From: Patescibacteria group bacterium
Lineage (GTDB): Bacteria; Patescibacteriota; Doudnabacteria; UBA920
NCBI GenBank assembly: GCA_023484515.1
Contig: JAMDAY010000019.1
Coordinates: forward strand, 30,483-94,482
DNA: 64,000 nt
Direction of reading: 5' to 3'
Shown: one piece after another, positions 13,425 to 60,713 of the stretch
Numbering within the stretch: position 1 is the stretch's first letter
Layout of the letters: every line of letters begins with the position of its first letter
Program-made: the position numbers and the translations under genes
The notes under the pieces: generated by a model
Told to the model about the DNA's origin: nothing
What the model saw: the letters and a program-made list of their open reading frames with translations, nothing else
Databases searched by the model: none

Positions 13425-14792
13425 CTAATTTTCCCTTAGCCTCCCGAAGCCGATGGAATCCTTAAACACATTAGCAGCCTTAAGCACTGGAGCGCGGCAA
13501 AGGGTAAAGTCCCCGTATTTGGCATTAATTTTGTCCAAGGCCTTAGCCACGCGTTGCTGCCGCTCCACGCCGCCAAACAAACTAAGCTGGCCCGATGCCG
13601 GGCGCAGGCTCCCCACGGTAATGCCGATTAACCTGACCTCCGCGCTTTTTCTGTTTAACTCTTCCCAGATATTCAGCGCTTCTGAAAAAATTTCCTTGCC
13701 TTCGGAAACTGGATAGCCCAGCCTCTTGCTGCGGCCAAAACCCTGACGGCCGTCGTATTCGTAAAAACAAAGCACGCCTCCTTCCAAATTCGCGCGGCGG
13801 AGCCGCGCGGCCACCATCTCGGAGAGCTTGTATAGCACCGGCGCAAAATATTCCGGCTTGCGGAACTCCTTTGGCAAAGTGTACATGTGGCCCATGGATT
13901 TTATATCCTCGTCTTCTTCCACTTCCGGCTTGAACGACCCTTCCAACTGTCCCAAATTGTAAAGATGGTGGCCGGGCAGGCCGAACAAGGCCACCAGCCT
14001 GCTTTTGGGATAATTTTTCAAATCCAGCAAGGTCTTTATTCCCAGCCCGTTCAGCCGTTTTTCCATGCGGCTGCCAATGCCCGGAACGTCGGTAAGCCGC
14101 AACAGATTGTATAGTTGATGTTTTGATAAAAATACGCAGGCGTAACCATTTTTGTCATTTTTATTATTTTTGTCATTTATCACCGCCAGCCCGTCGGGCT
14201 TTTTTAAGTCTGAAGCGATTTTTGCCTGCAGCTTGTTCTCCGCAATGCCTATGGAGCAGGTTAAATAGTCCCCCACTTCGCTGGTTATGCGCCGCTTAAT
14301 TTCTTTTGCGATTTTTACGGCTTCCATGAACGGGTCCGCTTGCGGCATTATTTCTTTACCTAAGATGTAGGTCGGACGCAATAATTTTTGAAATTTTATA
14401 TTTGATATTTGGAATTTATTTGGAAATTGGAAATGGGAAATTGGAATTTTAACATTGCAGCTTGCCGTAACATCCAAGAATACCTCGTCTATGCTGTATC
14501 TTTCCACCTTGTCCGTGTAGTCGCCAACCACCTTAACGAACCGCTGGCTGTAATGCCGGTAGCGGTCAGGGTGAGTTTGGGTCAAAATGATTTTCGGATA
14601 CAGTTTGACCGCTTCCCAAACCGGCGTGCCTGTCTTAATGCCCCATTTTTTGGCCTGCACGCTGGCCGCGATGATAATGCCGCCCAAATGCTCGCACACG
14701 CCCACCGGCTTTCCCCGCCACGCCAAATTCTCCTGCTGCTCAACAGAGGCAAAATAACTATTCATGTCTATGTGCATAATAACGCTTTGCAT
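13425..14792 (-). CDS. dinB: DNA polymerase IV (Y-family, DinB); start moved to MQSVIMHIDMNSYFASVE
   Basis: DMNSYFASVE and SIDEVFLDVT motifs. Contains low-complexity inserts (DKNNKNDKN; FQISNIKFQ). Confidence 0.8.
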   Translation of the reverse strand: MQSVIMHIDMNSYFASVEQQENLAWRGKPVGVCEHLGGIIIAASVQAKKWGIKTGTPVWEAVKLYPKIILTQTHPDRYRHYSQRFVKVVGDYTDKVERYSIDEVFLDVTASCNVKIPISHFQFPNKFQISNIKFQKLLRPTYILGKEIMPQADPFMEAVKIAKEIKRRITSEVGDYLTCSIGIAENKLQAKIASDLKKPDGLAVINDKNNKNDKNGYACVFLSKHQLYNLLRLTDVPGIGSRMEKRLNGLGIKTLLDLKNYPKSRLVALFGLPGHHLYNLGQLEGSFKPEVEEDEDIKSMGHMYTLPKEFRKPEYFAPVLYKLSEMVAARLRRANLEGGVLCFYEYDGRQGFGRSKRLGYPVSEGKEIFSEALNIWEELNRKSAEVRLIGITVGSLRPASGQLSLFGGVERQQRVAKALDKINAKYGDFTLCRAPVLKAANVFKDSIGFGRLREN

Positions 14793-14841
14793 AGCCGCTG
14801 AATTAATGCTGATAGGGACGCTGAATGGACGCTGATGGGGA

Positions 14842-14860
14842 GGGCGGATAGTATCCGCCC
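14842..14860. repeat. family D hairpin GGGCGGATAGTATCCGCCC, copy 1
   Basis: Identical copy at 14918-14936. A copy with longer arms sits inside the transposase gene at 26723-26749. Confidence 0.65.
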
Positions 14861-14917
14861 ATACAAAATGGCAGCGAACTGATATAGGGCGTCTGTGGCG
14901 GATTGGATGGATGTAGG

Positions 14918-14936
14918 GGGCGGATAGTATCCGCCC
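14918..14936. repeat. family D hairpin GGGCGGATAGTATCCGCCC, copy 2
   Basis: See copy 1. Confidence 0.65.
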
Positions 14937-15039
14937 GTACCAAAGATTACCAATGACAATACCAGCCCATTGAGCGGCCCTTTCAGGCGTCATTCCGGAT
15001 ACCCCGACGTTATGTCGGGGTATCCGGAATCTTGTTCTC

Positions 15040-15069
15040 TGAACGCCTCAACCGGCGTTGAGGCGTTCA
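15040..15069. repeat. family C palindrome, copy 2 (perfect 13-bp arms)
   Basis: TGAACGCCTCAACCGGCGTTGAGGCGTTCA. Confidence 0.75.
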
Positions 15070-15099: not shown

Positions 15100-15195
15100 T
15101 GAAGGCGCCCTTCCGGGATCAGCCTGCTTAAGTTAGATTAACAATGATCAACATCCAATTATCTAAAGTTAGTTTATCCCGGAAGGGCGCCTTCA
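15100..15195. repeat. family B inverted-repeat element, copy B2 (arms TGAAGGCGCCCTTCCGGGA)
   Basis: 19-bp perfect inverted terminal arms, AT-rich centre with ttagatta..atctaaag. Confidence 0.75.
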
Positions 15196-15393
15196 CAACC
15201 CCATCGCCTCCTTGCGCAATGGGTACCCTTGAGCCCTTTCCGTATATCCGCAGATATCCGTATTCCGTAAAAATTCAGCCTTGCCAAAGCCGAATTTTCT
15301 TGATAAAATAAAGGTATACGAACGTATACCATATTAAAATAATACCCCTTAACAACTATTTCAGTAAAGCCCGGTTATCCACAATAAAAAACG

Positions 15394-16724: not shown

Positions 16725-16891
16725 CTAGAGCTGGTCTCATAACCTGCTTTTAAAGCGAAAATTCAGAATTTCGAGCAGATTGGCGCAAATAAATTTTGAC
16801 GTTTAACTGAAGTTAAGCGGAAAAATTTTTTGCGGCAAGATGCCGAAATTGTGAAATTGCAGCCAAAATGAGGTTATGAGACCAGCTCTAG
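16725..16891 (+). repeat. family A repeat element, copy A1 (~125-nt conserved core flanked by 21-bp copy-specific inverted repeats)
   Basis: Core gcttttaaagcgaaa...cagccaaaatg. Flanks ctagagctggtctcataacct / aggttatgagaccagctctag. Confidence 0.75.
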
Positions 16892-19268: not shown

Positions 19269-20570
19269 ATGAGAAAAAGGACCAGATATTTGCTAATTGC
19301 AGCGGGTTTTACCGTTTTCCTAATACTTACCCCGTTAATTCTAATGTATGTGCGGGGAATCAGTTACGATTTTAGCACCCATAAATTCGTCCAGACCGGA
19401 ATTTTAGCCGTCAGGACCGACCCGAAAAATGTTAAGATAATTTTTAACGGCCAAACAAAGCGCAGCAGTTCCGGCGATATAAAATTCCTGAAACCCGGAG
19501 AATATGAAGTGAAAGTCGAAAAAGACGGATATTCCGCCTGGACCAAACGGCTGGCCGTTTATTCCGGACAAGTAACCTGGGCCAATCCGGTCGGCAATAA
19601 GATTTACCTGTTCGCTAAACAGCCTGCGGTTACGGACATCTCTTCCGGCGTCAAGGACTTCTACCTGCAGGACAACGCTTTGTTGTATTTATCCGGGCAA
19701 AATTTAACGGTTTCCAAGGCGGACAACCCGGGAGAAAACCAAAACTACGGATTGCCAAAACCGGCCGATAAAATTTTAGCCGCTCCGAACAATAAAACTT
19801 TTGCGCTTTATTCCGAAACCGCGACATCCGCAACCTCGTCGGTTATGGTTTTTTCCCTGGACGCGGGAAAAGTGACGGACATAAGTAATTTATTTTCCGC
19901 CGCGCCGGTCCTTAATTTTTCCGGGCAGAACGACTTATACGCCCTGGAAAACGGCGCGCTTTATCGCGTGGATTTAAACAAACCCGCGTTGATTCCTATT
20001 TTAACAGGCATTAAGTCCTTTACGTTTTTAGGCGATACCTTATATTTTATCAAGCAGGACGGGCCAAACCTATCCCTTTTTGCAACGCAGAATCCAGGCC
20101 AAGGCACGGACACTTTGCTGCAAAATCTCCCCAATTTCAGCCAAGGGACAATCAAAGTTAATTTTGAAAAACAAGTATTCCTGCTGTTGGACAACAACCT
20201 TTACGAAGTCGGTTCTGACTTGAAAAAAATTGCCGGCAATGTCACTGACTGGCATTTTAACCCGGCCGAATCCACCATGTCGTTCTTGCACTCCGGAGAA
20301 ATGGATTATTACAACCCTTTCCAGAAGGACATAGATTTCATTACCAGAAGCGGCTCCGGCCTTTCCAATCCCCTGGTAAGCCTGGAATTAAATTACGCGT
20401 TTGTGCTTAAGGACAACCAACTGACCGCCATAGAGCTGGACTCGCGCGACCGGCAAAATGAATATGCGCTTTACAGCGCGGCTAACGGCGGCAAATTCGC
20501 GTTGGACACCGCCGCCCAAAACATTTTCCTGCTGGACAACGGCAACCTGAAAAAAATTAAGATTCGCTAA
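19269..20570 (+). CDS. membrane-anchored PEGA-domain protein with a large extracytoplasmic region
   Basis: N-terminal TM; PEGA-like KPGEYEVKVEKDGYSAW. Confidence 0.55.
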   Translation: MRKRTRYLLIAAGFTVFLILTPLILMYVRGISYDFSTHKFVQTGILAVRTDPKNVKIIFNGQTKRSSSGDIKFLKPGEYEVKVEKDGYSAWTKRLAVYSGQVTWANPVGNKIYLFAKQPAVTDISSGVKDFYLQDNALLYLSGQNLTVSKADNPGENQNYGLPKPADKILAAPNNKTFALYSETATSATSSVMVFSLDAGKVTDISNLFSAAPVLNFSGQNDLYALENGALYRVDLNKPALIPILTGIKSFTFLGDTLYFIKQDGPNLSLFATQNPGQGTDTLLQNLPNFSQGTIKVNFEKQVFLLLDNNLYEVGSDLKKIAGNVTDWHFNPAESTMSFLHSGEMDYYNPFQKDIDFITRSGSGLSNPLVSLELNYAFVLKDNQLTAIELDSRDRQNEYALYSAANGGKFALDTAAQNIFLLDNGNLKKIKIR

Positions 20571-20583
20571 AAATATTTTATGT

Positions 20584-20745
20584 GAGGTGGTCTAAAAACT
20601 CGCTTTGTAGGCGAAATTGCAAAATTTCGAGGCAGTTGGGACAAATAAATTTTGATGTTTAGCCGTAGGCTAAGCGGAGAAATTTTTTGGCCCAAATGGC
20701 CGAAATTTTGCAATTGCAGCCCAAATGGAGTTTTTAGACAGCCTC
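20584..20745 (+). repeat. family A repeat element, copy A2
   Basis: Conserved core with 18-bp copy-specific flanking inverted repeats gaggtggtctaaaaactc / gagtttttagacagcctc. Confidence 0.75.
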
Positions 20746-20807
20746 TGTCTATTAAATACTGCATTACGGTCCGGTAATGCAGTGTTTTAAATCTGTGCCA
20801 TCCTCGG

Positions 20808-21248
20808 TTATAAGCGTATCTGCGGATACAATGCCTCGTCTATGGCCTGGTTCACCAGGCGGTCGGCTTCTTTGTTCTGCTCGCGCGGGACATGTTTGAA
20901 TTCTAAAGATTGGAAATTTCTGGATAATTTAAAGACTTCCGCTGCCAAAATTTTTAAGTTCGGGTCTTTTATTTTATATTTGCCCTGCATTTGCCGCACA
21001 ATTAATTCCGAATCCATCCTAATTTGGAGATTGGAGATTGGAGATTGGGAATTGGAAAGCTTGGCCGCTTCTTTAAGCGCGAGGATTAAGGCCTTATACT
21101 CGGCACAGTTGTTTGTAGCTTCGCCGATGTATTGTTGGTATTGGCCGACAATGTTGTTTTGCCCGTCGCGGATTACCACGCCAATTCCCGCCGGCCCCGG
21201 ATTTCCCCTGGCCCCGCCGTCGGTGTTGATAATAAGTTTGAATGTCAT
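20808..21248 (-). CDS. rnhA: ribonuclease HI
   Basis: INTDGGARGNPGPAG and CAEYKAL active-site regions. An in-frame SNSQSPISNLQI insert is encoded by a (ttggaga)n repeat. Confidence 0.85.
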   Translation of the reverse strand: MTFKLIINTDGGARGNPGPAGIGVVIRDGQNNIVGQYQQYIGEATNNCAEYKALILALKEAAKLSNSQSPISNLQIRMDSELIVRQMQGKYKIKDPNLKILAAEVFKLSRNFQSLEFKHVPREQNKEADRLVNQAIDEALYPQIRL

Positions 21249-22972
21249 AATTTTAATTTTTGTTCATTTTTAACATCAATTATGCGCAGCTTGATATCGC
21301 GCCGCCCGTTCCATCCATCCTCTATTAGTTCCGCTGCCACGTCTATAGTATCGCTAATTTTTAAAGTTTTGGCAAAATAACCCAGGCCGAACCCGATGGC
21401 GGAAATTGTTTTGCCGCCTTTTTGCAACTGCAATTGCAAGTGCTTTTGTTCCGCGCCGACCGCGCGCAAAGACCGCACCTGCAATTCGGAAATTAAAAAC
21501 TTCGGCCTGGAGTTGCCTACGCCAAAGGGCTCAAAATGCGAAAGCAATTCCAAAGTTTCCAGGCGCAAATCGCTTTCCGCCAATTCCGCGTCCAATTCCA
21601 AAGCGCGGTTCAAGTCTTCTTCGGACAAATTCTTTTCCGCGTATTCCAGAATCTTTCGGTAAAATTTTTCAAACTCCGAAACTTTCAGCGTCAGCCCGGC
21701 TGCCTGCCGGTGGCCGCCGAACCGGACAAGATGTTCAGAAGAAAATTTTAACGCTTCCACAATGTTAAATTCTCCCACAGTGCGGGCCGAGCCTACGGCA
21801 GTTTCCCCGTTTTTGGAAAGGACAATGGCCGGGCGGTTAAACTCTTCGGTAATCCTGCCTGCTACCAGGCCGACCACTCCCGGATGCCAATCTTCTTTCA
21901 TTAAGACCAGTATTTTGCGGTCTTCCAACAGTAAAGCCTGTTCGCGAGCCTCGCTTAACATTCTTAAAGTCGTATCCTGGCGGCTTTTGTTTAAAGTTTC
22001 CAAAGCCATGGCACGCTGCTGGGCAGCCACCAAATCCCCTTCCAGCAGCAAATTTAAAGCCGTGGTAGCCAGCTCCAGCCGCCCTGCGGCATTCAGGCGG
22101 GGCGCCAAAATAAAACCCAAGGTATAGGTGTCGGGAAGTTTCTGGTTAAAATTTAGCCCCGCAGTCTGGCATAAAATTTTTAAGCCCGGCCACCTGGTTT
22201 TTGGCAATACCTTTAACCCGAATTTCACCAGTACGCGGTTTTCCCCGAGCAGGGAATGGCAATCCGCCACCGTGCCAATAGCTACTAAATCTAAGAGCCA
22301 TTTTTCCCATCCGCTGATAAATTTTGGTTCTTGATTTTTGGATCTTGGGTCTTGCAAAATTCCCTGCGCCAACTTAAACGCCACGCCCACGCCGGTAATT
22401 TCGCGGCAAGGATAGGTCTCGCCGGGATTTTTTGGGTTGATTAAAGCAAAGGCGCCGGGCGTTGGACCTAAAACTTCGTGGTGGTCGGTAATGATAAAAT
22501 CCATCCCGTTGTTTTTGCAAAACTCCGCGGCTTCCGCGGAATTGGCGCCGCAATCAACAGTAATGACCAGTTTTGTGCCCTGATTGCGGATTTTTGTTAA
22601 AGCGTCCAAATTTACGCCGTATCCTTCGGTAAACCTGCTGGGGATGTAACTTTCCGTTTCCACTCCCAAATAACGGAAAGTTTGCTGCAGCACAGCATTG
22701 GCCGTAACCGCGTCCGCGTCGTAATCGCTGTAAATGCATATTTTTTCGCGGTTTTCAATGGCTTGCCAAATCCTGCCTGCGGCTTTTTTCATGTCTTTGA
22801 ACAAAAAAGGGCTGTGCAAGTCCTGGTATTGCGGCTCCATAAATTTTTTCACCCGGTCCAAGTCCGTAATCCCGCGATTATAGAGCAACTGCACGGTTAA
22901 AGACGAATACCCGTCCAGCTTGCGGAAAATTTCCTCCGGCGCTTCCGGTTTTAATTTCCATTGTTTAGGCAT
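21245..22972 (-). CDS. recJ: single-stranded-DNA-specific exonuclease RecJ
   Basis: DHH motifs (ITDHHE) and the DHHA1 region GGHRQAAG. Confidence 0.85.
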   Translation of the reverse strand: MPKQWKLKPEAPEEIFRKLDGYSSLTVQLLYNRGITDLDRVKKFMEPQYQDLHSPFLFKDMKKAAGRIWQAIENREKICIYSDYDADAVTANAVLQQTFRYLGVETESYIPSRFTEGYGVNLDALTKIRNQGTKLVITVDCGANSAEAAEFCKNNGMDFIITDHHEVLGPTPGAFALINPKNPGETYPCREITGVGVAFKLAQGILQDPRSKNQEPKFISGWEKWLLDLVAIGTVADCHSLLGENRVLVKFGLKVLPKTRWPGLKILCQTAGLNFNQKLPDTYTLGFILAPRLNAAGRLELATTALNLLLEGDLVAAQQRAMALETLNKSRQDTTLRMLSEAREQALLLEDRKILVLMKEDWHPGVVGLVAGRITEEFNRPAIVLSKNGETAVGSARTVGEFNIVEALKFSSEHLVRFGGHRQAAGLTLKVSEFEKFYRKILEYAEKNLSEEDLNRALELDAELAESDLRLETLELLSHFEPFGVGNSRPKFLISELQVRSLRAVGAEQKHLQLQLQKGGKTISAIGFGLGYFAKTLKISDTIDVAAELIEDGWNGRRDIKLRIIDVKNEQKLKL

Positions 22973-23145
22973 AGGCTAATTTTACCAAATTTAGCCAATA
23001 TAAAAAAGTGCAATCTTATTAATTTTAAGATTGTAAGATTGCGACGAATCGCTGCAAATTATGAGGAACACCTGCTGGGATTATTCATCCGATGACCAAC
23101 GAACATTAGTTGCGGGCTGATAGCTTGGCGAGGACATACGCCTCC

Positions 23146-23174
23146 TGAACGCCTCAACCGCGGTTGAGGCGTTC
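23146..23174. repeat. family C palindrome, copy 3
   Basis: TGAACGCCTCAACCGCGGTTGAGGCGTTC. A second palindrome cggctcaacgcgttgagccg lies ~160 bp downstream. Confidence 0.7.
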
Positions 23175-25061: not shown

Positions 25062-25187
25062 GGAATTTCAAAAGCAAAAGAATGGACCTTTTGGGATAAA
25101 CAATCTTTAGATTATTTAACTAGCGATCATTATTAATCAATCTTAAGGAAAACAGTCTCAAAAAAGTCGCTCTTTTGCAACAATATT

Positions 25188-27707: not shown

Positions 27708-28952
27708 TTAACTCAACGCCTCAATGCCGGGGAGTTTGGCGCCGGCGAGGTATTCCAGCATGGCGCCGCCGCCGGTGGAAACGTGGTCAATATGGTCCAG
27801 TTGGTGGGCCATGCGGACGGCGTCTACGGTTTCCCCGCCGCCGACCACGCCAAAGGCTTTGCGCCTGGAAACCGCGCCGACAATGCGCGCCAAAGCCATG
27901 GTCGCGGTGTGGAAGGGTTTTACCTCAAACAACCCCAGCGGCCCGTTCCAGACAATCGTCCTGGCCAATTTTAATTCCGCGGCGTATTTTAAAATGGTTT
28001 TCGGCCCAATGTCGTAAATTGTTTCGTTCTTCCCTATCTCGTGCGGCCGGGCCACGCGAATGGTGCTGCGGTCCATCTGTTCGTCAGCCACCACCACGTC
28101 CGCGGGCAGCAATATCTTTCCTTTAAAATTCTTTTCCAAATGCCAGGCAATTTTTTCCGCGTCTTTTTCCACTTTAGACTTACCAATTTCATATCCTTTA
28201 GAAAGAAAAAACAAATTAGCCAATCCTCCGGCCAGCAAAATTTTGTCCGCTTTTTCCCCCAAATTTTCTATGGTCTGAACTTTGTCCGAAATTTTAATTC
28301 CGCCCATCATTACCACAAACGGGCTTTGGCTTTTGTGCAGGACAATATCCAATGACTTTATTTCCTTTTCCAAGAGCAGTCCGGCGTAAGAAGGCAAATA
28401 TTTAGTAATGGCCGAGACCGATGCTGCCTGGCGGTGATCCACGCCAAAGGCGTCATTGACATAAACTTCAGCCAGGCCGGCCAATTTCTTGGCGAACATG
28501 GCGTCATTTTCTTCCTCGCCTTTGTAAAACCTGAGATTCTCCAACAATACCACGTCCTTAACCGGCACGCTGTCCAATTGCTTCCTATGCTTGTCTTCCG
28601 CAAAATTGCCGGTATAAAAAATTAAGTGGCTTAATGGGTAGTTCGGCAAGGCGTGGTCGGTTTCTAAAAATTTAAACTGCAAAAGTTCGGCCATTTTTTC
28701 CGCTACCGGCCGCAGACTTAAGCTTTTGTCAGGCTTGCCGCCGGGCCTGCCCAAGTGGCCGCATAAGACTACCCGATTATTGCCCTTTTGCAGATATTTG
28801 ATTGTCGGCACAATTTCCTCAATGCGAAAAGCGTCCGCCACTTTGCCGGTTTGTTTGTCTATAGGCACATTCACGTCAACGCGCACCAACGCTGTCTTAT
28901 TTTGAATTTTTGACGTTCGCAAATATTTGATTGCCACAAAAATAATGAGCAA
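27708..28952 (-). CDS. pgk: phosphoglycerate kinase
   Basis: LVRVDVNVPI N-terminal motif and the C-terminal GGGA...G motif. Confidence 0.9.
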   Translation of the reverse strand: MLIIFVAIKYLRTSKIQNKTALVRVDVNVPIDKQTGKVADAFRIEEIVPTIKYLQKGNNRVVLCGHLGRPGGKPDKSLSLRPVAEKMAELLQFKFLETDHALPNYPLSHLIFYTGNFAEDKHRKQLDSVPVKDVVLLENLRFYKGEEENDAMFAKKLAGLAEVYVNDAFGVDHRQAASVSAITKYLPSYAGLLLEKEIKSLDIVLHKSQSPFVVMMGGIKISDKVQTIENLGEKADKILLAGGLANLFFLSKGYEIGKSKVEKDAEKIAWHLEKNFKGKILLPADVVVADEQMDRSTIRVARPHEIGKNETIYDIGPKTILKYAAELKLARTIVWNGPLGLFEVKPFHTATMALARIVGAVSRRKAFGVVGGGETVDAVRMAHQLDHIDHVSTGGGAMLEYLAGAKLPGIEALS

Positions 28953-28983
28953 AAATTAACAAACTTGACAAAAATGAACAAAA

Positions 28984-30054
28984 TTAGCCTGCGTTCATTT
29001 CCGTCGTTTTTGTCATTTTTTTAATTTTTTCATTCCCTACCATTATCACTTCTTCCACTAGCCGGTTACTATACCCAAATTCATTGTCATACCAGGCCAC
29101 GACTTTCACGAAATTGCCGTCCACTACCTGGGTTAAAGAAAGGTCAATAATAGTTGAGGCGGGATTCCCTACTATATCCTGTTGGACAATCGGTTCAGCC
29201 GTGACCTCAATTATGCCCTTATACTTTTCTTCTTTTGATGCGTCAATAAAAGCCTGGTTAATTTCTTCCTTGGTGGTATTTTTTGACATTAAAATTACAA
29301 AATCCGAAAGTGAGCCGACTGGCGTGGGCACGCGGAAAGAAACGCCGTCAAACTTGCCTTTCAGGGAAGGGATGGCCTGCGTGGCCGAAATTGCCGCGCC
29401 GGTCGTGGTTGGAATAATGTTGACTGCGGCTGCGCGGGCCCTTCTTAGGTCGTTCGATTTTCCTCCCGGCGGCGGCCCGTCCACCAGGTTCTGCTCCGCG
29501 GTATAGCTGTGGATAGTGGACATAAAAGCCTTTTCCACCCCGAATTTTTGCTGCAATACGTCCAAAACCGGCGCAATGCAGTTGGTGGTGCAGGAAGCGT
29601 TGCTGATTATTGGCTGGCCCTTATAAGTTTCCTGGTTTACTCCCAATACGATGGTAGGCGTTACGCCTTCGTCCTTGGCCGGCGCGGAAATTACGACTTT
29701 TTTTGCGCCGGCTTTCAAATGAGCCGAGGATTTTTCGCTGTCTGTAAACCTGCCGGTTGCCTCTATTACGACATCAACTCCCAATTTTCCCCACGGCAGC
29801 GCTGCGGGATCTTTCTCCGCGAATACGGGATATTTTTTTTCATCCACTATGATATTCTTTTCGTCAGATTCTACCCGGCGGGGGTAAGTGCGATAAACGC
29901 TGTCATATTTCAACAAATGCGCCAAGACCGCCGTTGAACTCAGGTCGTTAATCCCGACAATTTCAATTTCCGGCTTTTCCAGCGCGACTTTAAACGCCTG
30001 CCGCCCTATGCGGCCAAACCCGTTAATTGCGACTTTGATTGTTGGCATAAGCAC
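28984..30054 (-). CDS. gap: glyceraldehyde-3-phosphate dehydrogenase
   Basis: INGFGRIGR and the ASCTTNC active site. Confidence 0.95.
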   Translation of the reverse strand: MLMPTIKVAINGFGRIGRQAFKVALEKPEIEIVGINDLSSTAVLAHLLKYDSVYRTYPRRVESDEKNIIVDEKKYPVFAEKDPAALPWGKLGVDVVIEATGRFTDSEKSSAHLKAGAKKVVISAPAKDEGVTPTIVLGVNQETYKGQPIISNASCTTNCIAPVLDVLQQKFGVEKAFMSTIHSYTAEQNLVDGPPPGGKSNDLRRARAAAVNIIPTTTGAAISATQAIPSLKGKFDGVSFRVPTPVGSLSDFVILMSKNTTKEEINQAFIDASKEEKYKGIIEVTAEPIVQQDIVGNPASTIIDLSLTQVVDGNFVKVVAWYDNEFGYSNRLVEEVIMVGNEKIKKMTKTTEMNAG

Positions 30055-32458: not shown

Positions 32459-32510
32459 AAAATAATTTGAAGATTAAAAGATTTAAGGATTGAAGGATTC
32501 ATAATTCTTG

Positions 32511-32960: not shown

Positions 32961-33025
32961 ACTTTAGGTTTTAGGTGTTAACTTTTAGGGATTAGGGCTA
33001 AAACCTAACGCCTAATATCTAATAC

Positions 33026-34948: not shown

Positions 34949-35332
34949 CTAATTTCTTTTCTGCTTGTCCAGGTAATTCTGCAGCAGAATCTGCGCGGCC
35001 AGGCTGTCCAGATTCTTTTTTTCGCCGGTTAAGTGCTGCGCCATTACGGACGACAGCCTTTCGTCGCCAATGCCAACCGGGATTTCTACCAATTTCTCCA
35101 ATTTTTCTTTGAACTTTCTGACTTCTTCAGTCTTTTTTGTTTCCTGGCCGCTTAAGTTCAAAGGCCAGCCGATTATAATGCGCCCGATGGAATAATTTAA
35201 AATTAAAAGATTTAAGGATTTCCAAAATTCTTTTGGCGACAATATATCCAATTCGCGCGCGAGCGTTTGCGTTTCGTCGCTAATTGCCAAACCAATCCTC
35301 TTTTCGCCATAGTCAATTCCTAAAATCCGCAT
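34949..35332 (-). CDS. ruvX: Holliday junction resolvase-like protein YqgF/RuvX
   Basis: ILGIDYGEKRIGLAISD N-terminus. Carries a low-complexity insert encoded by aaagatttaaggattt. Confidence 0.8.
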   Translation of the reverse strand: MRILGIDYGEKRIGLAISDETQTLARELDILSPKEFWKSLNLLILNYSIGRIIIGWPLNLSGQETKKTEEVRKFKEKLEKLVEIPVGIGDERLSSVMAQHLTGEKKNLDSLAAQILLQNYLDKQKRN

Positions 35333-38660: not shown

Positions 38661-38784
38661 GCCGATAACTGCAAAATTACGCAGATATTTACGCGTATAA
38701 ATTAAGTTTGCCTATTTTTATTTCAGGATTCGCTTTTGAATACTATAATTTTGTCAATTTTGCTTAATTTTGTCAATTTTGTCA

Positions 38785-40383
38785 TTATTCTATCAACTCT
38801 CCCCCGAAAATCTTAAGCGCGTCGGTTATAGCCGAGGCCGGAGAAGCTGTTTCCTCGCTGCTTTCCTTGGCCACTTGGGACAATATGTTAATTTTTTTGC
38901 CCAGAACTTCTTCCAGGGCTTGGCAAATTATGGCGCGGTTTTTCGCGTTTTCCAAATTCTGCTTATGGAATAAGAACTTTACTCCCAAGACCGCCGCGTT
39001 TCCCCGGACATCTATAGCGGGAGAATTCTTTACCAAATTGGCTAAGGGGCTATTAATGGCTTTTATTTTTTCCACGACCTGAGGCCAAACTTGCTGTAAT
39101 TCTTCCAAACTTGCCGGAGGACCCCCAACGCGCGAAACTGTTTCTTCTGCAAAACTGTTAGATAAATTTTGGACTTCCAGGGTGGCGCTGGAAACCTTAG
39201 GCGGCGCGGTATTTGCCTGGTATTTTACCGAAGCGGATTCCGCAACTATTTCTTGGGGCCGGGCAGGCGCAACGGCTGAAGTCTTTTTATAAACCGCCTC
39301 CAGGCCGGCCAGCAACAGCGGAATATCCGGCCGCGGGGACGCGGCCAAATCTTTAAACGACTTTAAAAAGAGCCTGACCGTAAATATCAGTTCATTGGCG
39401 GAAAATTTTCCAGCTAAATCCTGCAATTTGCTTTCCGCCGCAGCCGAAGGCAGCCCGGCCGCCGCTCCGCTGACCTTAAAAATTAAGGCCTTCCTTAAAT
39501 ATTCCAAAAAATCCTTGTTTAAAATTTGGAAATCCAAGCCCTTTTCCAGTAAGGAGTCAAAAAACGCGGGAATGTCCCCGGCTTTTCCCAGGGCAATCAG
39601 TTCCAACAGATTTTCGCAAACCGCAATATCCGTAATTCCCAGCAATTGCTGGCAGTCAGCCAGGGTGCAATCGCCGCCCAAGGTTGCTATTTTATCCAAC
39701 AGGGATAAAGAGTCGCGGACGCTGCCTTCGGCGTTTTGCGCTACCAGTTTTATGGCTTCTTCAGGCAGTTTTATATTTTCCGCCTTGAGGATTTTAGCCA
39801 AATGACTTTCCAAATCTTCCGAAGCCAGCCTTTTAAAATCGAAACGCTGAGTGCGGGATACAATGGTAGCGGGAACTTTGTTAACTTCCGTAGTGGCCAA
39901 AATAAAAATAGCATGGCTGGGCGGTTCTTCCAGGGTCTTAAGCAGCGCGTTAAACGCACCCTTGGACAGCATATGCACTTCGTCTATAATGAACACCTTA
40001 TATTTTCCCGCAGCCGGATTAAATTTTACGTGCTCTATGAGGTCGCGGATATTGTCCACGCCGGTGTTGGAGGCCGCATCTATCTCCACCAAATCCAAAA
40101 AATTTCCCTCTTCAATCTGCTTGCAAACCTGGCATTGACCGCAGGCGTCACCATTGTTTTTTTTGGATCTTAAATCTTGGTTCTTGGATCTTTCAACACA
40201 ATTCACCGCTTTTGCCAAAATCCTGGCAACCGACGTCTTCCCTACCCCGCGCGTGCCGGTGAACAAATAAGCATGGCTAACCTGCTCGCTTTCCACCTGG
40301 TTCTTAAGCGTTCGGATGATATATTTTTGGTTTAAGACCTCGGCAAAATTTCGCGGCCGGTATTTGCGGTATAAAACTGCCAT
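38785..40383 (-). CDS. dnaX: DNA polymerase III subunit gamma/tau
   Basis: Walker A GTRGVGKTS and the Zn module CGQCQVC. An in-frame insert ERSKNQDLRSKKNN is encoded by a (ttggatctt)-type repeat. Confidence 0.9.
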   Translation of the reverse strand: MAVLYRKYRPRNFAEVLNQKYIIRTLKNQVESEQVSHAYLFTGTRGVGKTSVARILAKAVNCVERSKNQDLRSKKNNGDACGQCQVCKQIEEGNFLDLVEIDAASNTGVDNIRDLIEHVKFNPAAGKYKVFIIDEVHMLSKGAFNALLKTLEEPPSHAIFILATTEVNKVPATIVSRTQRFDFKRLASEDLESHLAKILKAENIKLPEEAIKLVAQNAEGSVRDSLSLLDKIATLGGDCTLADCQQLLGITDIAVCENLLELIALGKAGDIPAFFDSLLEKGLDFQILNKDFLEYLRKALIFKVSGAAAGLPSAAAESKLQDLAGKFSANELIFTVRLFLKSFKDLAASPRPDIPLLLAGLEAVYKKTSAVAPARPQEIVAESASVKYQANTAPPKVSSATLEVQNLSNSFAEETVSRVGGPPASLEELQQVWPQVVEKIKAINSPLANLVKNSPAIDVRGNAAVLGVKFLFHKQNLENAKNRAIICQALEEVLGKKINILSQVAKESSEETASPASAITDALKIFGGELIE

Positions 40384-40859: not shown

Positions 40860-41021
40860 GGGTCTGTTGCCGAATGCGCTTTTAAGGCGAAATTTCAGAA
40901 TTCCGAACAGATTGGCCAAAATAATTTTTGATGTTTAGCCGCAGGCTAAGAAGAAAAAATTTTTTGGCCAGGATGCCGAAATTCTGAAATTGCAGCCAAA
41001 ATGGCATTTGGCAACAGACCC
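40860..41021 (+). repeat. family A repeat element, copy A3
   Basis: Conserved core with flanking inverted repeats gggtctgttgccgaatgc / gcatttggcaacagaccc. Confidence 0.75.
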
Positions 41022-45951: not shown

Positions 45952-46081
45952 TTGTTTTTATTTTTATTCGGGATAAACAGACTTTAGATTATAAGATTAT
46001 GATTATCACCAGCCGATGTTTAGATAAGCAACACGGAAAGGATAACCCTTGTGCAACACGCCTGTAAATAACCGGCTATGA

Positions 46082-46918: not shown

Positions 46919-46941
46919 CTTTTTATTCTTTAAAACTTAGG

Positions 46942-46975
46942 CATTTCTTGCATGCTATATAGCATGCAACAAATG
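46942..46975. repeat. family E palindrome, copy 2 (CATTTCTTGCATGCTATATAGCATGCAAcAAATG)
   Basis: Near-identical to 4146-4179. Confidence 0.7.
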
Positions 46976-46985
46976 TCTAAAAAAT

Positions 46986-48144: not shown

Positions 48145-48671
48145 AATAAATGTAAATAATCTAAAGCAAGATAACCAGTAGCAATGTCGGTTAACTGGCC
48201 TTTACGCAAGCGTTCACGGAAATCAGTTAAAGTTAAAATCTGCGGTTCCAGAAATTCAAATTGGTCAGGTTTTATTTCCGCCACCTCAATACATTCTTTG
48301 GCTATAAAATTATACCTGACTATACTTTCATACGCTGTTCCCAAACTTTCTCCAATTAATACCAGTTTTCCTTTATATCCGGTTTCTTCCAGGAGTTCCC
48401 TGGCTGCGGCTTGTTCCGGCGTTTCGTTTTCTTCGCAGCTTCCGCCAGGCAGTTCAAACAAAACCCTTTCCGGTCCTGGACGGAATTGCTTGGCTACCAC
48501 TACCTGATTACTGATAGTTAGGGGGAAAATACAAACCGTTTTGTTGCGCCCCAGCACGTCAAAGTCTACCAATTCCCCATTAGGCATCAGGAAAGTTTTC
48601 CGTAACATTTTTCGGTAACCGGCATTATAACCTTGCTCTTTGATCTTTTTCCATTCAATTTTATTATTCAT
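48141..48671 (-). CDS. NUDIX hydrolase
   Basis: Nudix box GGSCEENETPEQAAARELLEETG. Confidence 0.8.
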   Translation of the reverse strand: MNNKIEWKKIKEQGYNAGYRKMLRKTFLMPNGELVDFDVLGRNKTVCIFPLTISNQVVVAKQFRPGPERVLFELPGGSCEENETPEQAAARELLEETGYKGKLVLIGESLGTAYESIVRYNFIAKECIEVAEIKPDQFEFLEPQILTLTDFRERLRKGQLTDIATGYLALDYLHLL

Positions 48672-48727
48672 GCTGTTATTATGGCAGATTTTGGGGAAAA
48701 ATAAAACTGCTTTAAATAAGGCGGTTT

Positions 48728-48754
48728 GAACGCCACAACACGTGTTGAGGCGTT
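48728..48754. repeat. family C palindrome, copy 4 (one arm mismatch)
   Basis: GAACGCCaCAACACGTGTTGAGGCGTT. Confidence 0.6.
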
Positions 48755-48770
48755 GGGATTTTTGGCAGTA

Positions 48771-48862
48771 AAGACGCCCTTCCGGGACCAGCCTTTTAAA
48801 GTCAGATTAATTATGATTAATATCTGATAATCTAAAGTTTGTATATACCGGAAGACCGTCTT
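48771..48862. repeat. family B inverted-repeat element, copy B3 (arms 13/15 matched)
   Basis: aagacgcccttccgg ... ccggaagaccgtctt with an AT-rich centre containing gataatctaaag. Confidence 0.6.
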
Positions 48863-49006
48863 CACCCCGGAGACGCCGGCTTTGGCTATTTTTGCCGGGA
48901 TGGACCGCGACCGACGCGGCCCGCACTACATTTGATGCATGAATAAAAGCGGCCAGTGGCCGCTTTTGAAATCTTTTAATCTTTCAATTTTCAATTCTTA
49001 AATTTG

Positions 49007-50732: not shown

Positions 50733-50848
50733 ATATATTTTGCTAGAACTTTAGGGAATACGGATCCGTCAGCCGCGTAAATTCATCCTGCGTGGCTATC
50801 TGGCGGAGTACGAATATACGGATGTAGAATCCTTGATCCTTTCCGGCA

Positions 50849-50945
50849 GTGAAGGCGCCCTTCCGGGATAAGTGATTTTAAATTGTTAGATGTTGATTAC
50901 TATCAAACTTACTTTAGAAGGCTTGTTCCGGAAGGGCGCCTTCAC
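50849..50945. repeat. family B inverted-repeat element, copy B4, in the rpsE-rplO spacer where rpmD (L30) normally sits
   Basis: 18-bp perfect arms GTGAAGGCGCCCTTCCGG. Confidence 0.75.
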
Positions 50946-50989
50946 CCTCTATCCGTATATCCGTATTAATCCGTATTCCGTAAAAATAA

Positions 50990-52986: not shown

Positions 52987-53091
52987 AAGATTAATTGAAC
53001 AAAAATTAAAAAAATTAAATAAATGACAAAAATAAGGATTCTTTATTGTTTTTATTATTTTTGTTCACTTTTGCCATTTTTGTCATTATTG

Positions 53092-53286
53092 TTACCAAGA
53101 AGCCTTCACCACTCCCGGAATTTCTCCCCTGCTGGCCAGTTCCCTAAAACAGATCCTGCACAAATTAAAGTCCCGCATGTAACCGGCTTTCCTGCCGCAC
53201 TTCCAACACCGCCTGATCTTCCTGGTGGAAAATTTGGGATTCTTTAAGCTTCTCTTGGCTTTTGCAATATGCGCTTGTGTGGCCAT
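53092..53286 (-). CDS. rpsN: 30S ribosomal protein S14 type Z (zinc-binding); start moved to [11 protein letters not shown]
   Basis: [38 protein letters not shown]. Confidence 0.85.
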
Positions 53287-53920: not shown

Positions 53921-54007
53921 AAAAATAGCTTTTAGCTGTTAGTTATTAGCTTTTAGATTCTTGGTGTTTCCTCTCCTAGACACCTATAAGCTAAAGCCTA
54001 TTATCTA

Positions 54008-55408: not shown

Positions 55409-55509
55409 ACTATATATATTCGGTAATTAATCGCTGGTTGTTACGCTGGTCTGCCGCTGATAGGCTTCAGCGTCTATTCAGCGTAGCTATCAGCGTTCTT
55501 TCAGCGGCA

Positions 55510-56702: not shown

Positions 56703-56806
56703 AAAATTGATTAAACAAGATTTAAAGATTTAAAAGATTGAGCGTAATTCGTAATTTATGATAATCTTGGCAATGTCGGCCAATCATGTCAATCTTGCCA
56801 ATTAAT

Positions 56807-57406
56807 TTACTCTCCGCCTTTCCGGTTAAACAGCCTTCTTTTATTCTGGACTTTGTTCTGCTTAACCTGGTCTTCGGCCTTAAACGCTTGCTTTTTGGCC
56901 GGCTGTTTTTCCTGGCGCTGGTTGGTCGCTTCCTTCTGGTCAATATTTTCGGCGGATGCCTGTTCGGCGGGCTTGGTTGCTTTTTTCAGGAAAGCCAGCC
57001 TTGATGCGGCGGACTTGCCGCGCTTCTTTTCGGCCAATACCACGTTTACATGGCTGGTCTTGCGGCGGATGACAAACGCACTGCCGCGGGCCCGGGGAAA
57101 ATACCGCTTCATAACCTGGCCCATATCCGCGGTAATGCTTTTAATAAATAAGTTTTCCGCTTCCAGGGAAAAATTCTGTTTGGCGTTGGCAATGGCCGAA
57201 TCCAGCACTTTTACCACCATGCCGGCCGCCTTCTTGTTGGTGTGGGCCAGTTGCGCCAAAGCGTCCGAAACGTACATGCCCTTGACCAAATTGGTTACCA
57301 GCCTGATCTTGCGCGGGGAAATGTGAAGATGCCGGGCATGTGCCGTTACCAATTTTCCGGTAGTCTCATTTTTAGCAATTTTATCGGTCATAACAATACT
57401 TGTCAT
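56807..57406 (-). CDS. rplV: 50S ribosomal protein L22 with a ~85-aa Lys/Gln-rich C-terminal extension
   Basis: AHARHLHISPRKIRLV core plus a long basic tail. Confidence 0.85.
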   Translation of the reverse strand: MTSIVMTDKIAKNETTGKLVTAHARHLHISPRKIRLVTNLVKGMYVSDALAQLAHTNKKAAGMVVKVLDSAIANAKQNFSLEAENLFIKSITADMGQVMKRYFPRARGSAFVIRRKTSHVNVVLAEKKRGKSAASRLAFLKKATKPAEQASAENIDQKEATNQRQEKQPAKKQAFKAEDQVKQNKVQNKRRLFNRKGGE

Positions 57407-57477
57407 TACGAATTACGAAGTATGAATTTGGAATTATGCACCCAGTACCTTAATTCATAATTCCGTATTCCTAATTC

Positions 57478-57810
57478 CTATTTTTTCTCCGGCTCCTTTG
57501 CCGCTGCCAGCTTGGCTTTTTCCGCCGCTGCCGCCGCCGCTTCCTGTTCCTTGGCCATCTTGCCGCCATGCCTGTTAAATTTGCGGGTCAGGGCGAATTC
57601 TCCCAGTTTGTGCCCGACCATATTTTCCGTTACGAACACCGGCACATGCGTCCTGCCGTTATGCACCAAGAAGGTGAATCCGACAAATTCCGGGGCAATG
57701 GCGCAATCGCGCGACCAGGTTTTAATCTGGTCCTTTCCGGCTTTGGACTTGGCGACCTTAGCCGCAAGCTTGGGGTCTACATATGGTCCTTTTTTAGATG
57801 ATCGTGACAT
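57478..57810 (-). CDS. rpsS: 30S ribosomal protein S19 (Ala/Lys-rich C-terminal tail)
   Basis: [20 protein letters not shown]. Confidence 0.9.
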
Positions 57811-58747: not shown

Positions 58748-58845
58748 AAAAATTATTGAACAAAAGTTAAAAAATTGGCAAAATTGACAAAAGTTTATTG
58801 CATCCTAATTTTATTATTTTTGTCAATTTTGTTCATTTTTGTCAT

Positions 58846-59208
58846 TTAAATTGTCTCTGTCGCCCCTTCTATCTTGTCTCCCTGTTTTAGGGTTACGACC
58901 GCTTTTTTAAAACCGGAAGTTGTGCCGCTAATCCTGCCGTAATTCCTGGCCTTGCCTTTGTTGTTTATTACGTTCACCTGCGTCACCCTGACTTTATAAA
59001 CGCCTTCCACCGCTTTCTTGATTAAAATCTTATTGGCTTCTTTGCGGACCAAAAAAACGTACTTATTGCCTTGCACCAAATGGCTGGCTTTTTCCGAAAC
59101 CCTGGGCTGCACCAAAATTCCGCCAAAAGCGGCAGCCGGTTTTCCCGCGCCGCGCTTTACGGACTGCTGATTCCCCGCTTCTTCTTCTTTTTTGCTGAAT
59201 ATGGCCAT
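58846..59208 (-). CDS. rplW: 50S ribosomal protein L23 (N-terminal extension)
   Basis: L23 core; position in the operon. Confidence 0.85.
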   Translation of the reverse strand: MAIFSKKEEEAGNQQSVKRGAGKPAAAFGGILVQPRVSEKASHLVQGNKYVFLVRKEANKILIKKAVEGVYKVRVTQVNVINNKGKARNYGRISGTTSGFKKAVVTLKQGDKIEGATETI

Positions 59209-59295
59209 ATTAAATATTGAACAAAAGTTAAAAAATTGGCAAAATTGACAAAAATTTACTGCACCCGAATTTTATTATTTTTGTCATTCTATTGT

Positions 59296-59955: not shown

Positions 59956-60023
59956 AAATGTTAGCGATTAGCTTGTAGCTTTTAGCGATTAGCGGCTAAA
60001 CGCTAATGACTAAGTGCTAAATG

Positions 60024-60713
60024 CTATTTCTTTTTCTTTTCTTCCCTCACTTCCTGGAACTTGACTAAAGGCTTTACCTTGCCGGTAGATACCACTTTAA
60101 CCATGGCATTGCGATGTCCGGGAACCGCGCCTTTTAAAATTAGGAGATTTTTGGCCGCGTCCACTTCCACTACCTGCAAATTCTTAACAGTTACCTGTTC
60201 GTTCCCCATGTGTCCGGCCATTCTTAACCCTTTGCGGGTATGCTGCGGAAACCGTTGGCCAATTGACCCGACCGACCTGGGTCGGTCATGGCCGTGACTG
60301 GCCGGAAACCCGGCAAAACCGTGGCGCTTAATTGCCCCGGCAAAACCGCGGCCCTTGCTGACGCCGACGACGTTTACCATTTCCCCGGGCTTAAAGCCGG
60401 ACAGATCCAGCTTTTGGCCTTTTTGGAAATCTTTAACTTCGGCCGTGCGGACTTCCGCTAAAACGGAAAAAGTACCCAATTCCTTTAAATGTCCTTGTAA
60501 AGACTTGGATACCTTTTTCTTTTTGCCTGCCCCGTCGCGGAGCTTTACGGGGCCAATGCCAATTTGCACGGCATTGTATTTGTCCTTGCCGTCTGCGGAT
60601 TTTACCTGGGTTACGGTCATTTCCGCGCCCTGAATTACGGTTACCGGGAAAACTTCCCCGCTCGGGTCAAAATGCTGGGTCATATTCAACTTTTTGCCGA
60701 TGAGGAAATTCAT
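60024..60713 (-). CDS. rplC: 50S ribosomal protein L3; start moved to MNFLIGKKLNMTQHF
   Basis: The ORF-track N-terminal 27 aa translate the repeat spacer (gatataagat..), so the real start is the internal Met. Confidence 0.85.
   Translation of the reverse strand: MNFLIGKKLNMTQHFDPSGEVFPVTVIQGAEMTVTQVKSADGKDKYNAVQIGIGPVKLRDGAGKKKKVSKSLQGHLKELGTFSVLAEVRTAEVKDFQKGQKLDLSGFKPGEMVNVVGVSKGRGFAGAIKRHGFAGFPASHGHDRPRSVGSIGQRFPQHTRKGLRMAGHMGNEQVTVKNLQVVEVDAAKNLLILKGAVPGHRNAMVKVVSTGKVKPLVKFQEVREEKKKK

Follow-up and report, generated by a model that had tools for sequence, protein, structure and literature searches.

A heptamer array inside dnaX as a probable coding-region member of clade-wide long simple-sequence repeats in Doudnabacteria-like genomes

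A decayed array of heptamers within dnaX, the gene for DNA polymerase III gamma/tau (38785-40383, minus strand), was analysed in a stretch of DNA from a Patescibacteria group bacterium of the GTDB lineage Doudnabacteria, UBA920 (assembly GCA_023484515.1, contig JAMDAY010000019.1, positions 30,483 to 94,482 of the forward strand). This whole stretch of 64,000 nucleotides (64 kb) is called the window, and its first letter is position 1. The array is probably a coding-region member of a population of long simple-sequence repeats (SSRs) with units of 7, 8 or 9 nt that extends across the genome and the clade, was made by slippage, was partly copied between loci and was filtered by selection. The original prediction had drawn attention to runs of repeat words in dnaX, recJ, rnhA, rsmH, dinB and ruvX, and all of the strings that it quoted were found at or near the positions it gave. 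The identities of these genes were backed by Pfam, the matches in dnaX being DNA_pol3_delta2, AAA, DNAX_ATPase_lid and DNA_pol3_gamma3.

The array within dnaX

The array lies at 40156-40196 on the minus strand (40153-40196 in the original prediction), encodes RSKNQDLRSKKNN and reads AAGATCC AAGAACC AAGATTT AAGATCC AAAAAAA on the sense strand. Tandem Repeats Finder (TRF), with which tandem arrays were called throughout, reported 4.3 copies of a 7-nt period with 73% matches at 40163-40192. Alignment with E. coli tau placed ten additional residues (RSKNQDLRSK) opposite a gap in the latter, between the first and second cysteines of the zinc module; the insert, previously located before this module, is thus inside it, between the first cysteine and the CxxCxxC motif. 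Residues 68-84 are coil in the AlphaFold model of DnaX, and the predicted local distance difference test (pLDDT) values of the 10-residue blocks over the insert are 73 and 67, compared with 95-96 in the upstream and 91-92 in the downstream flank.

Directly 3' of the dnaX stop codon stands a second array, made of four copies of the nonamer TTGACAAAA (38747-38784, minus strand; TRF score 60). Both arrays were recovered unchanged in an independent Logan assembly of SRR10252151, which is identical to the window over the 3105 nt that cover them. An origin of the repeats as artefacts of assembly or sequencing, as the original prediction had allowed, or as chance low complexity is scarcely credible: the source is a metagenome-assembled genome (MAG) and short repeats can mis-assemble, but the two assemblies agree, every reading frame is intact, equivalent arrays occupy the same loops of relatives from many independent samples, and chance is excluded by the shuffled sequences and the 1.26 Mb of control loci described below.

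The dnaX insert also contains a homopolymer of eight adenines (40159-40166, codons 74-76), across which the frame is intact in both assemblies. A link between this run and programmed frameshifting or transcriptional slippage in dnaX was considered and dropped, as slippage at codons 74-76 would only truncate the protein, too early for a gamma-like product.

Excess and distribution of arrays in the window

The null expectation was obtained from shuffles that preserved dinucleotides within 200-nt blocks, and a control set of 1.26 Mb (1264 kb) of unrelated bacterial loci, taken from 80 bacteria of a DnaX-alignment scan, was used as a baseline only. Counted without overlap, 64 TRF loci were present in the window against 16.5±3.5 in shuffles; 13 of them had period 7 (1.4 when shuffled), 9 had period 8 (2.5) and 17 had period 9 (2.4). 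Arrays of period 7-9 with at least three copies reached a density of 0.34 per kb, compared with a mean of 0.054 per kb in the controls. Nearly half of the TRF loci (30/64) fall in the ~15% of the DNA that is intergenic. Low complexity driven by composition was ruled out as an explanation, given the GC content of 46-48% and the retention of local dinucleotide content in the shuffles.

The claim that the words of the coding arrays also make up intergenic spacers was upheld. The 8-mers of the arrays in open reading frames (ORFs) occurred 255 times in intergenic DNA against 93.5±13.9 times after shuffling (2.4-2.7-fold enrichment), and longer specific matches were found as well: dinB loop 2 is 91% identical over 33 nt to an intergenic arm at 58816-58848, and ruvX 35191-35220 matches 31 nt of an intergenic array at 32461-32491 with 93.5% identity. 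Matches of the same kind join coding regions to one another, 29/36 nt being identical between the dnaX array and the recJ run and 23/24 nt between the rsmH and dinB arrays.

Units with and without stop codons are distributed differently. The pattern CCAAnnn x3 gave 10 matches (0.89 expected), all of them in ORFs and on the sense strand, and CTAA-containing heptamers (CTAAnnn x3) gave 16 matches (0.38 expected), only in spacers and on both strands; in an ORF such a unit would place a stop codon in every reading frame. Within ORFs, arrays were confined to variable loops or segments of proteins that are conserved elsewhere. The ORF arrays always have the A-rich, stop-free orientation, and because a stop-free heptamer is read in all three frames, the product is a hydrophilic peptide with a period of 7 residues. 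Tandem TAACTGA, CCCCAGT, TTGGTCA or CAACAGT units were not present in the window.

Insertions and length-neutral patches at the other coding sites

The runs had all been described as inserted in frame, and alignment to orthologues had been proposed as the check for lineage-specific inserts. As judged by such alignments, five of the eight listed sites are insertions, with gaps opposite them in structures or relatives (dnaX, recJ, rnhA and two sites in dinB), and at the other three, in variable segments, repeat-type sequence stands without a gap and leaves the length unchanged (two sites in rsmH and one in ruvX). Head-to-tail units of 7-9 nt were called by TRF at all of the listed ORF sites except recJ, which was a pattern match only, and ruvX. 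All of the sites given below are on the minus strand.

The recJ run (22318-22355) reads GACCCAA GATCCAA AAATCAA GAACCAA on the sense strand and encodes DPRSKNQEPK; it is below the TRF threshold and fits CCAAnnnCCAAnnnCCAA with at most one mismatch (CCAAnnn x3), and the protein has 6 and 7 additional residues relative to PDB 8y30. The rnhA array (21020-21058; TCTCCAA ~x4.7), encoding SNSQSPISNLQ, was called at 21024-21056 with period 7, 4.7 copies, 88% matches and a score of 52; its product is five residues longer than that of the relative L089 and only one residue longer than PDB 3u3g. In dinB, the loop-1 arrays of AATTTCC and AAATATC units (14385-14452; TRF 14387-14449, period 7) encode PISHFQFPNKFQISNIKFQ within ~50 extra residues after LDVT relative to PDB 7yll, and the loop-2 nonamer array of the AATGACAAA type (14145-14180; TRF 14147-14178, period 9, 3.6 copies) encodes NDKNNKNDKN within 14 extra residues after VINDK relative to the same structure. 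The longest dinB ORF carries, in addition, a 68-residue N-terminal extension (14790-14993) that is probably untranslated, the NCBI protein having 455 residues and its start at 14789; this extension spans CGCTGAA-type repeats of 11/23 nt (14796-14841) similar to those of the spacer at 55409-55509.

The first rsmH array (7357-7395, TATCAAA type; TRF 7360-7390, period 7, 4.4 copies) encodes NIKFQISNIK, and the second (7040-7068, GAACCAA type; TRF 7042-7066, period 7, also a pattern match) encodes RTKNQ. Neither site showed a gap relative to Thermotoga MraW (PDB 1m6y at the first site) or to 30 relatives; the nearest relative, P0361, has DNIKSQLTNVKS opposite ENIKFQISNIKN of the window at the first site, and relatives have segments of similar length at the second, such as GLRAKGVE in P0361. 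The ruvX patch (35188-35222) consists of repeat-type words that encode KSLNLLILN; no tandem repeat at the level of TRF was present at 35170-35235, and no gap was found relative to five orthologues.

None of the coding arrays exceeds 3.6 perfect copies, and with matches of 73-88% they are decayed. This bears on the suggestion that they are contingency loci, in which the gain or loss of units would switch or modulate dnaX, recJ, dinB and other host genes. Like those of classical phase-variable genes, the units have a length not divisible by three, and the phase variation of H. influenzae hmw is driven by heptamer SSRs, although there they lie in the 5' untranslated region (UTR) (PMC12721329). 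However, the hosts (dnaX, recJ, rnhA, rsmH, dinB and ruvX) are essential or housekeeping rather than surface genes, a change of one 7-nt unit would shift the frame of an essential gene and truncate DnaX at ~residue 80, and the DnaX, RecJ and DinB homologues retrieved are all full-length, with the frame intact in every relative examined. Phase variation is very unlikely, since the ORF arrays are decayed and their hosts essential; the earlier proposal of slippage or contingency loci therefore stands for the tandem, slippage-type nature of the arrays and falls for their contingency.

Hypervariable loops shared among relatives

An NCBI MAG that bears the name 'Patescibacteria group bacterium' has proteins 100% identical to DnaX, RecJ and DinB; the nearest relatives of the three, several of them labelled Candidatus Doudnabacteria, are only 60-68% identical. 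Approximately 120 Doudnabacteria-like homologues of each protein were compared (120 for DnaX, 118 delimitable ones for RecJ and 120 for DinB), and DNA was recovered for nine relatives, in which heptamer arrays were borne out. An automated detection of lineage-specific inserts in the syntenic block missed sites common to several genomes and mostly returned GC-rich hairpin inserts.

The DnaX loop that follows AKAVNC has 8 residues in 45/120 homologues and 9-34 in most of the others, where its repetitive peptides include VERTKNQEPRTKSEDGDA, QEGIKNQESGIKAGDA, LRQVESGKLKVESRGEP and ISESRKSEVGGRDKGDA. At the DNA level the loop holds TCGGAAG x3.7 in L083 and GTTGAAA x4 in L086, and the arrays of L081 and L082, of the AGAATTA type, can be aligned to that of the window codon for codon. 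The closest DnaX relative has no insert. An empty site, TTA AAT CCC AAA GAC GGC GAT GCC, was found in L091 and a similar sequence in L090; comparison of filled and empty DnaX sites revealed no evident target-site duplication and no precise or fixed ends.

The other proteins behave alike. The RecJ loop, delimited by GVAFKLA..IL and GWEKWLLDLV, has 9-59 residues in the 118 relatives and contains peptides such as NPKSEIRNPK, SEKCKVKSEKY and AKGLGLRAK, which are three-frame readings of heptamers like AAATCCG, as confirmed by the DNA of L087 and L088. In rnhA an array occurs at the same place in L088 and in L087. The copies in L088, perfect in rnhA (AATTTCC x4) and near-perfect in recJ (AAATCCG x4), point to recent slippage. 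The DinB loops of the 120 relatives, delimited by alignment and with conserved flanks included in their lengths, have 25-102 residues (loop 1) and 15-85 residues (loop 2), with the peptides PISNFQF (in many relatives, loop 1), NPKSEIL, SEKCKVK, GLRAKG and IDKNDK. Identity between residues seven positions apart was about twice background in the DnaX and RecJ loops, and 25 four-residue words were common to at least three of the four loop sets, compared with 2-6 in control segments. Array density among relatives varied from 0 to 0.74 per kb; array-rich relatives have heptamer inserts in DnaX, and array-poor ones have an empty site or a different element.

These peptides might themselves be the object of selection, as flexible or disordered linkers or as interaction surfaces, so that a useful 7-residue repeat would maintain the periodicity of the DNA, as proposed for Borgs. 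The same loops bear such peptides in many relatives, distant lineages share the motifs ERxKNQE and NPKSEIR in their proteins, and the Borg preprint reports repeats selected to create disordered regions (bioRxiv 10.1101/2022.05.18.492195). We consider this explanation decidedly improbable, as the 45/120 DnaX relatives with the short loop, the closest included, have no insert, units and lengths vary freely between lineages, and the array words are even more abundant in non-coding spacers. The identical motifs are, moreover, shared by unrelated proteins, which argues for an origin at the DNA level.

Spacer arrays and predicted hairpins

The 64-kb window has a GC content of 45-48% and carries nearly all of its genes on the minus strand, in three groups: a fragment of the division and cell wall (dcw) cluster with mraZ, rsmH and a penicillin-binding protein gene; a block of glycolysis, pentose-phosphate and replication-repair genes; and the EF-Tu gene with the S10 and spc ribosomal-protein operons. 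No known RNA family was detected by Rfam at gathering thresholds across the whole window, and no tRNA was found in it. The genome is poor in Shine-Dalgarno (SD) sequences, SD-like tetramers being present upstream of 16/78 genes and strong in three.

Many spacers, including those within the S10 and spc operons, consist almost wholly of an array followed by its inverted complement and are predicted to fold as ladders of 4-6-bp helices with small internal loops between them (z scores of -2.7 to -4.5 for the heptamer spacers). All of the spacer features given here are on the minus strand. The L3-L4 spacer (59956-60023; TRF 59961-59994 and 59995-60026) contains only TTAGCnn and then GCTAAnn units, matches CTAAnnn x3 on both strands and would form a hairpin that abuts the L4 start codon, with a minimum free energy (MFE) of -18.9 and z -4.5. 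Comparable heptamer hairpins are predicted in the tpiA-rpiB spacer (32961-33025; TTAGGnn/CCTAAnn, TRF, pattern matches, z -4.0), for which the equivalent spacer of relatives holds arrays of other units, in the S19-L22 spacer (57407-57477; GGAATTA/TAATTCC, TRF 57405-57482, MFE -19.0, z -3.6) and in the spacer 5' of L5 (53921-54007; TAGCTTT/AGCTAAn, TRF 53926-53956, pattern matches, z -2.7). Further arrays fill the rpiB-rpe spacer (32459-32510; octamer AATCCTTn matching the ruvX patch, TRF 32470-32499, self-BLAST) and the L22-S3 spacer (56703-56806; GGCAAGATT and AAATCTTT, TRF 56717-56739 and 56763-56802). The neighbouring L22 gene (56807-57406) encodes 199 residues, of which the Pfam domain covers 22-124, leaving a C-terminal extension of ~75 residues.

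A nonamer element, composed of TGACAAAAA units followed by TTTTTGTCA units, is present in four copies in the window and in a fifth in the relative L083, the latter being as similar to the window copies as those are among themselves. The copies lie in the L23-L2 spacer (58748-58845; (A)TGACAAAA then TTTTGTCAA units, TRF, z -2.7), in the L4-L23 spacer (59209-59295; self-match and family alignment), in the spacer 5' of S8 (52987-53091; TRF 53001-53092, alignment) and, in diverged form and overlapping the gene ends, at the GAPDH-PGK junction (28944-29032; 78% identity over 92 nt to 58757-58846). The first two are 92% identical over 83 nt (L23-L2 copy and 59204-59286).

Arrays lie at most 45 nt 5' of the start codon in 12 genes, and 11 of these 12 have no SD-like sequence. 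It is possible, by analogy with the 5'-UTR of H. influenzae hmw, that the spacer hairpins, which often abut such starts, have a role in mRNA processing or translation. The canonical -35 hexamer TTGACA is part of a nonamer unit that is conserved between genomes (AATTGACAA), with sites at 58755-58792 and 38747-38784 of the window, 16249-16287 of L083, 14419-14456 of L088 and 7347-7391 of L089; a sigma-70 scan gave 18 weak promoter-like matches in the ribosomal-protein region against 9.5±2.7 expected, some of them in TTGACA nonamer arrays, which is a lead only.

Inverted pairs of heptamer arrays numbered 5 in the 64 kb of the window, 8 in ~156 kb of relatives and 5 in the 1264 kb of controls, a density ~12-20 times higher here than in the controls. 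Inverted heptamer or nonamer hairpins were also seen in unrelated bacteria (L002 4590-4690; L013 2297-2378 and 6251-6322; L008 4143-4268; L079 9217-9323), in MAGs of Anaerolineae, Acutalibacteraceae, groundwater 'Deltaproteobacteria' and Desulfobulbaceae, that of L002 lying directly upstream of an SD sequence and start codon. The inverted-array architecture may be a widespread, little-noticed class.

Origin of the arrays

In the explanation that we favour, replication slippage would create the arrays and alter their size; it would account for their tandem form, the variable copy number, the perfect arrays of some relatives and the persistence of periodicity at a site while the unit drifts. The dnaX array may have arisen locally by slippage or duplication, as its unit TCCAAGA resembles the ancestral loop sequence of the empty site, CCCAAAGA. 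Short stretches would further have been copied between loci through template switching, ectopic conversion or some form of mobility, a step proposed to explain the recurrence of the same irregular strings of units across genes and spacers. Selection would then leave arrays only in spacers or in permissive surface loops where the net length change is divisible by 3. Spacers would tolerate any unit and ORFs would keep only stop-free orientations that encode hydrophilic residues, the coding arrays being decaying passengers and not switches.

Several results weigh against this explanation. No length variants of the dnaX array were found in a scan of metagenome contigs, so that it is only the relatives that point to ongoing slippage here. 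Slippage alone would not be expected to yield a limited unit set common to several proteins and to genomes with ~60% protein identity, nor would it predict the length-neutral rsmH and ruvX patches, for which the added copying step would be needed. The DnaX tree is star-like, and vertical inheritance with loss is therefore inseparable from recurrent gain. Consensus folding of the nonamer family gave a weak energy and no covariation support, and a conserved RNA structure is accordingly not claimed for it.

Some of the same observations are those that a dedicated miniature mobile element would produce, namely a foldback-type miniature inverted-repeat transposable element (MITE) with tandem heptamer or nonamer arrays as arms, moved by an enzyme encoded elsewhere into spacers and, with the frame preserved, into tolerant loops, in the manner of Rickettsia palindromic elements (RPEs). 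In-frame copies in unrelated conserved genes and copies between genes, a trait of RPEs and MITEs, are present here. Consistent with mobility are the near-identical dispersed copies of the nonamer element in two spacers and the equally similar one in L083, the ORF arrays that match spacer arms, the unit set common to several proteins and genomes, and a GC-rich double-hairpin element that occurs in the DnaX loop, intergenic DNA, GalT and RuvX of relatives. Insert types are also discordant with the clustering of DnaX by the unweighted pair group method with arithmetic mean (UPGMA), which on a star-like tree is weak evidence. As traits of a dispersed family, the nonamer element recurs and the ORF arrays share stretches of 24-36 nt, but most arrays have their own unit.

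Palindromic structure, the other trait of RPEs and MITEs, is confined to the spacer copies, which have two arms. For the ORF arrays, which have one arm each, neither an inverted partner nor terminal repeats were found; filled and empty DnaX sites show neither evident target-site duplications nor fixed ends; orthologous sites hold differing units; three sites are length-neutral; and no transposase-like gene is present in the 64-kb window. A mobile element of this kind is thus possible and yet unlikely. The earlier idea of mobile mini-insertions tolerated in surface loops is retained in part: tolerance is supported by the low-pLDDT coil in DnaX and by the hypervariable DnaX, RecJ and DinB loops, and some copying between loci is suggested by shared irregular sequence, whereas the ORF arrays have neither the second arm nor the terminal repeats of a mobile element, target duplications are not evident and the window has no transposase.

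More speculatively, and with still less likelihood of being right, an active sequence-specific process in some Doudnabacteria-like genomes might seed a small shared unit set (AATTTCC, AAATCCG, AGTGAAA, CTAAGGG, TTGACAAAA and others) into single-stranded DNA, through an unrecognised foldback micro-transposon or templated repeat addition; the hairpins would then be signals for SD-independent translation or processing and the protein loops collateral sinks. Were this true, bacteria would have a further, new class of repeat element, sporadic also in Anaerolineae and other phyla (L002, L008, L013, L079). Slippage with partial copying and selection remains the explanation that we regard as probable.

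Other dispersed elements

Several further repeated elements were encountered in the window and its relatives. In L084 and L085 the DnaX loop carries an insert of 28-34 residues that is encoded by a GC-rich double hairpin with an MFE of -39 to -42 kcal/mol, exemplified by CCCGCC-AAGG-GGCGGG together with CCCCTCCTC-AAA-GAGGAGGGG. The element was located at 10187-10288 in L084, at 10187-10270 and 13403-13467 in L085 and at 17414-17466 in L083; related copies are intergenic and adjoin DUF559 endonuclease genes, and similar GC-rich hairpin sequences are read in frame within GalT (L083) and RuvX (L084). Their presence in the DnaX loop, GalT and RuvX means that these genomes do carry small repeated elements in frame within ORFs. 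The element resembles RPEs and may be linked to DUF559. A longer peptide family, ...KGSLHSSDALxxGRDDT..., recurs in RecJ and DinB loops (for example P0126, P0231, P0307, P0317, P0331, P0339, P0354 and P0355) and probably marks a further in-frame element repeated in the clade.

An element of ~100 nt with long terminal inverted repeats (GAAGGCGCCCTTCCGGGATAA ... TTATCCCGGAAGGGCGCCTTC) and an AT-rich core is dispersed in the window, its copies being 74-80% identical over ~95-100 nt (7576-7769, 13192-13424, 15100-15196, 48771-48865 and 50849-50944; partial copies at 25062-25187 and 45952-46081). At 50733-50989 it is nested within inverted TACGGAT arrays (MFE -91, z -6.6; no Rfam match), and the 65-residue ORF at 48668-48865 is probably this element and no gene. 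A second element of ~130-165 nt (cattttggctgcaatttcagaatttcggcat...) with 78-84% identity between copies was found at 16728-16889, 20584-20746 and 40878-41003, and the 65-residue ORF at 20567-20764 is probably one of its copies. Perfect palindromic hairpins of two families are repeated among the spacers, GAACGCCTCAAC-N4-GTTGAGGCGTTC at 1609-1639, 15039-15069 and 23145-23174, and ttcttgcacgctatatagcgtgcaagaaatg (preceded by cat) at 4137-4188 and 46933-46984; both resemble repetitive extragenic palindromic (REP) elements or terminators.

Significance and comparison with known repeat systems

Arrays that fill the spacers of ribosomal-protein operons and the loops of DnaX, RecJ, DinB and RNase H are unexpected in the small, streamlined genomes of bacteria of the candidate phyla radiation (CPR). 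No description of such arrays in CPR bacteria was found in the literature searched, an incomplete library; repeats of this kind are familiar from other bacteria, but their occurrence in this lineage and the shared loop hot spots are apparently unreported. The hot-spot loops are natural maps of insertion tolerance in these enzymes, and the inverted-array hairpins at SD-less starts are a testable candidate for organising translation or mRNA processing. The arrays likely cause errors of annotation and alignment, in the form of false ORFs and spurious low-complexity "domains", and they could act as strain markers. The patchy distribution of array-rich and array-poor genomes could expose the enzyme or repair defect behind heptamer repeats, a question as old as the noted bias of prokaryotic SSRs.

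The short tandemly repeated repetitive (STRR) sequences of cyanobacteria are heptamer repeats. For prokaryotic long SSRs in general, with units of 5-11 nt, PMC4679880 attributes to Mrazek et al. 2007 both the observation of a heptamer bias and the proposal of an origin by polymerase slippage. The arrays described here resemble them in being tandem and longer than expected by chance, in the predominance of heptamers, in the lineage-specific and patchy spread and in the mostly non-coding location of units that are not multiples of 3. They differ in being short, imperfect and often arranged as inverted pairs, and in recurring in the same protein loops across the clade with a shared unit set.

Direct repeats of the heptamer TAACTGA occur in marine Beggiatoaceae and in cyanobacteria; in Beggiatoaceae the arrays sit just 5' of start codons that mostly lack SD sequences, including those of ribosomal-protein operons, and as the forward orientation has stops in three frames, only reverse copies are found in ORFs, where they encode 7-residue repeats (PMC4679880). 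The heptamers of the window are likewise concentrated upstream of SD-less starts and limited in orientation by stops in ORFs. In contrast to the one dominant unit in direct orientation of Beggiatoaceae, many units are present here, often as inverted pairs, and none is a tandem TAACTGA or STRR unit. The ORF copies of Beggiatoaceae are found chiefly in hypothetical proteins or at the ends of proteins, whereas those described here are internal to DnaX, RecJ and DinB loops.

In H. influenzae, (ATCTTTC)n forms one arm of a long hairpin in the 5'-UTR that is cut by RNase III and sets the expression of HMW1A (PMC12721329). That system involves one virulence locus, where 11 or more perfect units are present, and its second arm is a G-rich region rather than an inverted array (PMC12721329). 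RNase III processing and phase variation were proven there by experiment, whereas the hairpins described here are predicted from sequence and have no covariation support.

RPEs are palindromic elements of ~150 bp in defined families, found between genes and in frame within housekeeping genes (PMC10969869). As with RPEs, the repeats of the window are both intergenic and in frame at positions compatible with the fold, and the encoded peptides recur in different proteins (PMC10969869). Unlike RPEs, the ORF arrays of the window are single-armed, 30-70 nt long and built of tandem units of 7-9 nt, and the GC-rich hairpin inserts of L084 and L085 are closer to RPEs than are these arrays. The ORF repeats of Borgs are reportedly near-perfect, with unit lengths divisible by 3, and differ in this from the units described here, which have 7 or 8 nt, are read in three frames and are decayed. 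The two systems are alike in that tandem repeats pervade coding and intergenic DNA, in ORFs adding low-complexity or disordered segments to the protein (bioRxiv 10.1101/2022.05.18.492195).

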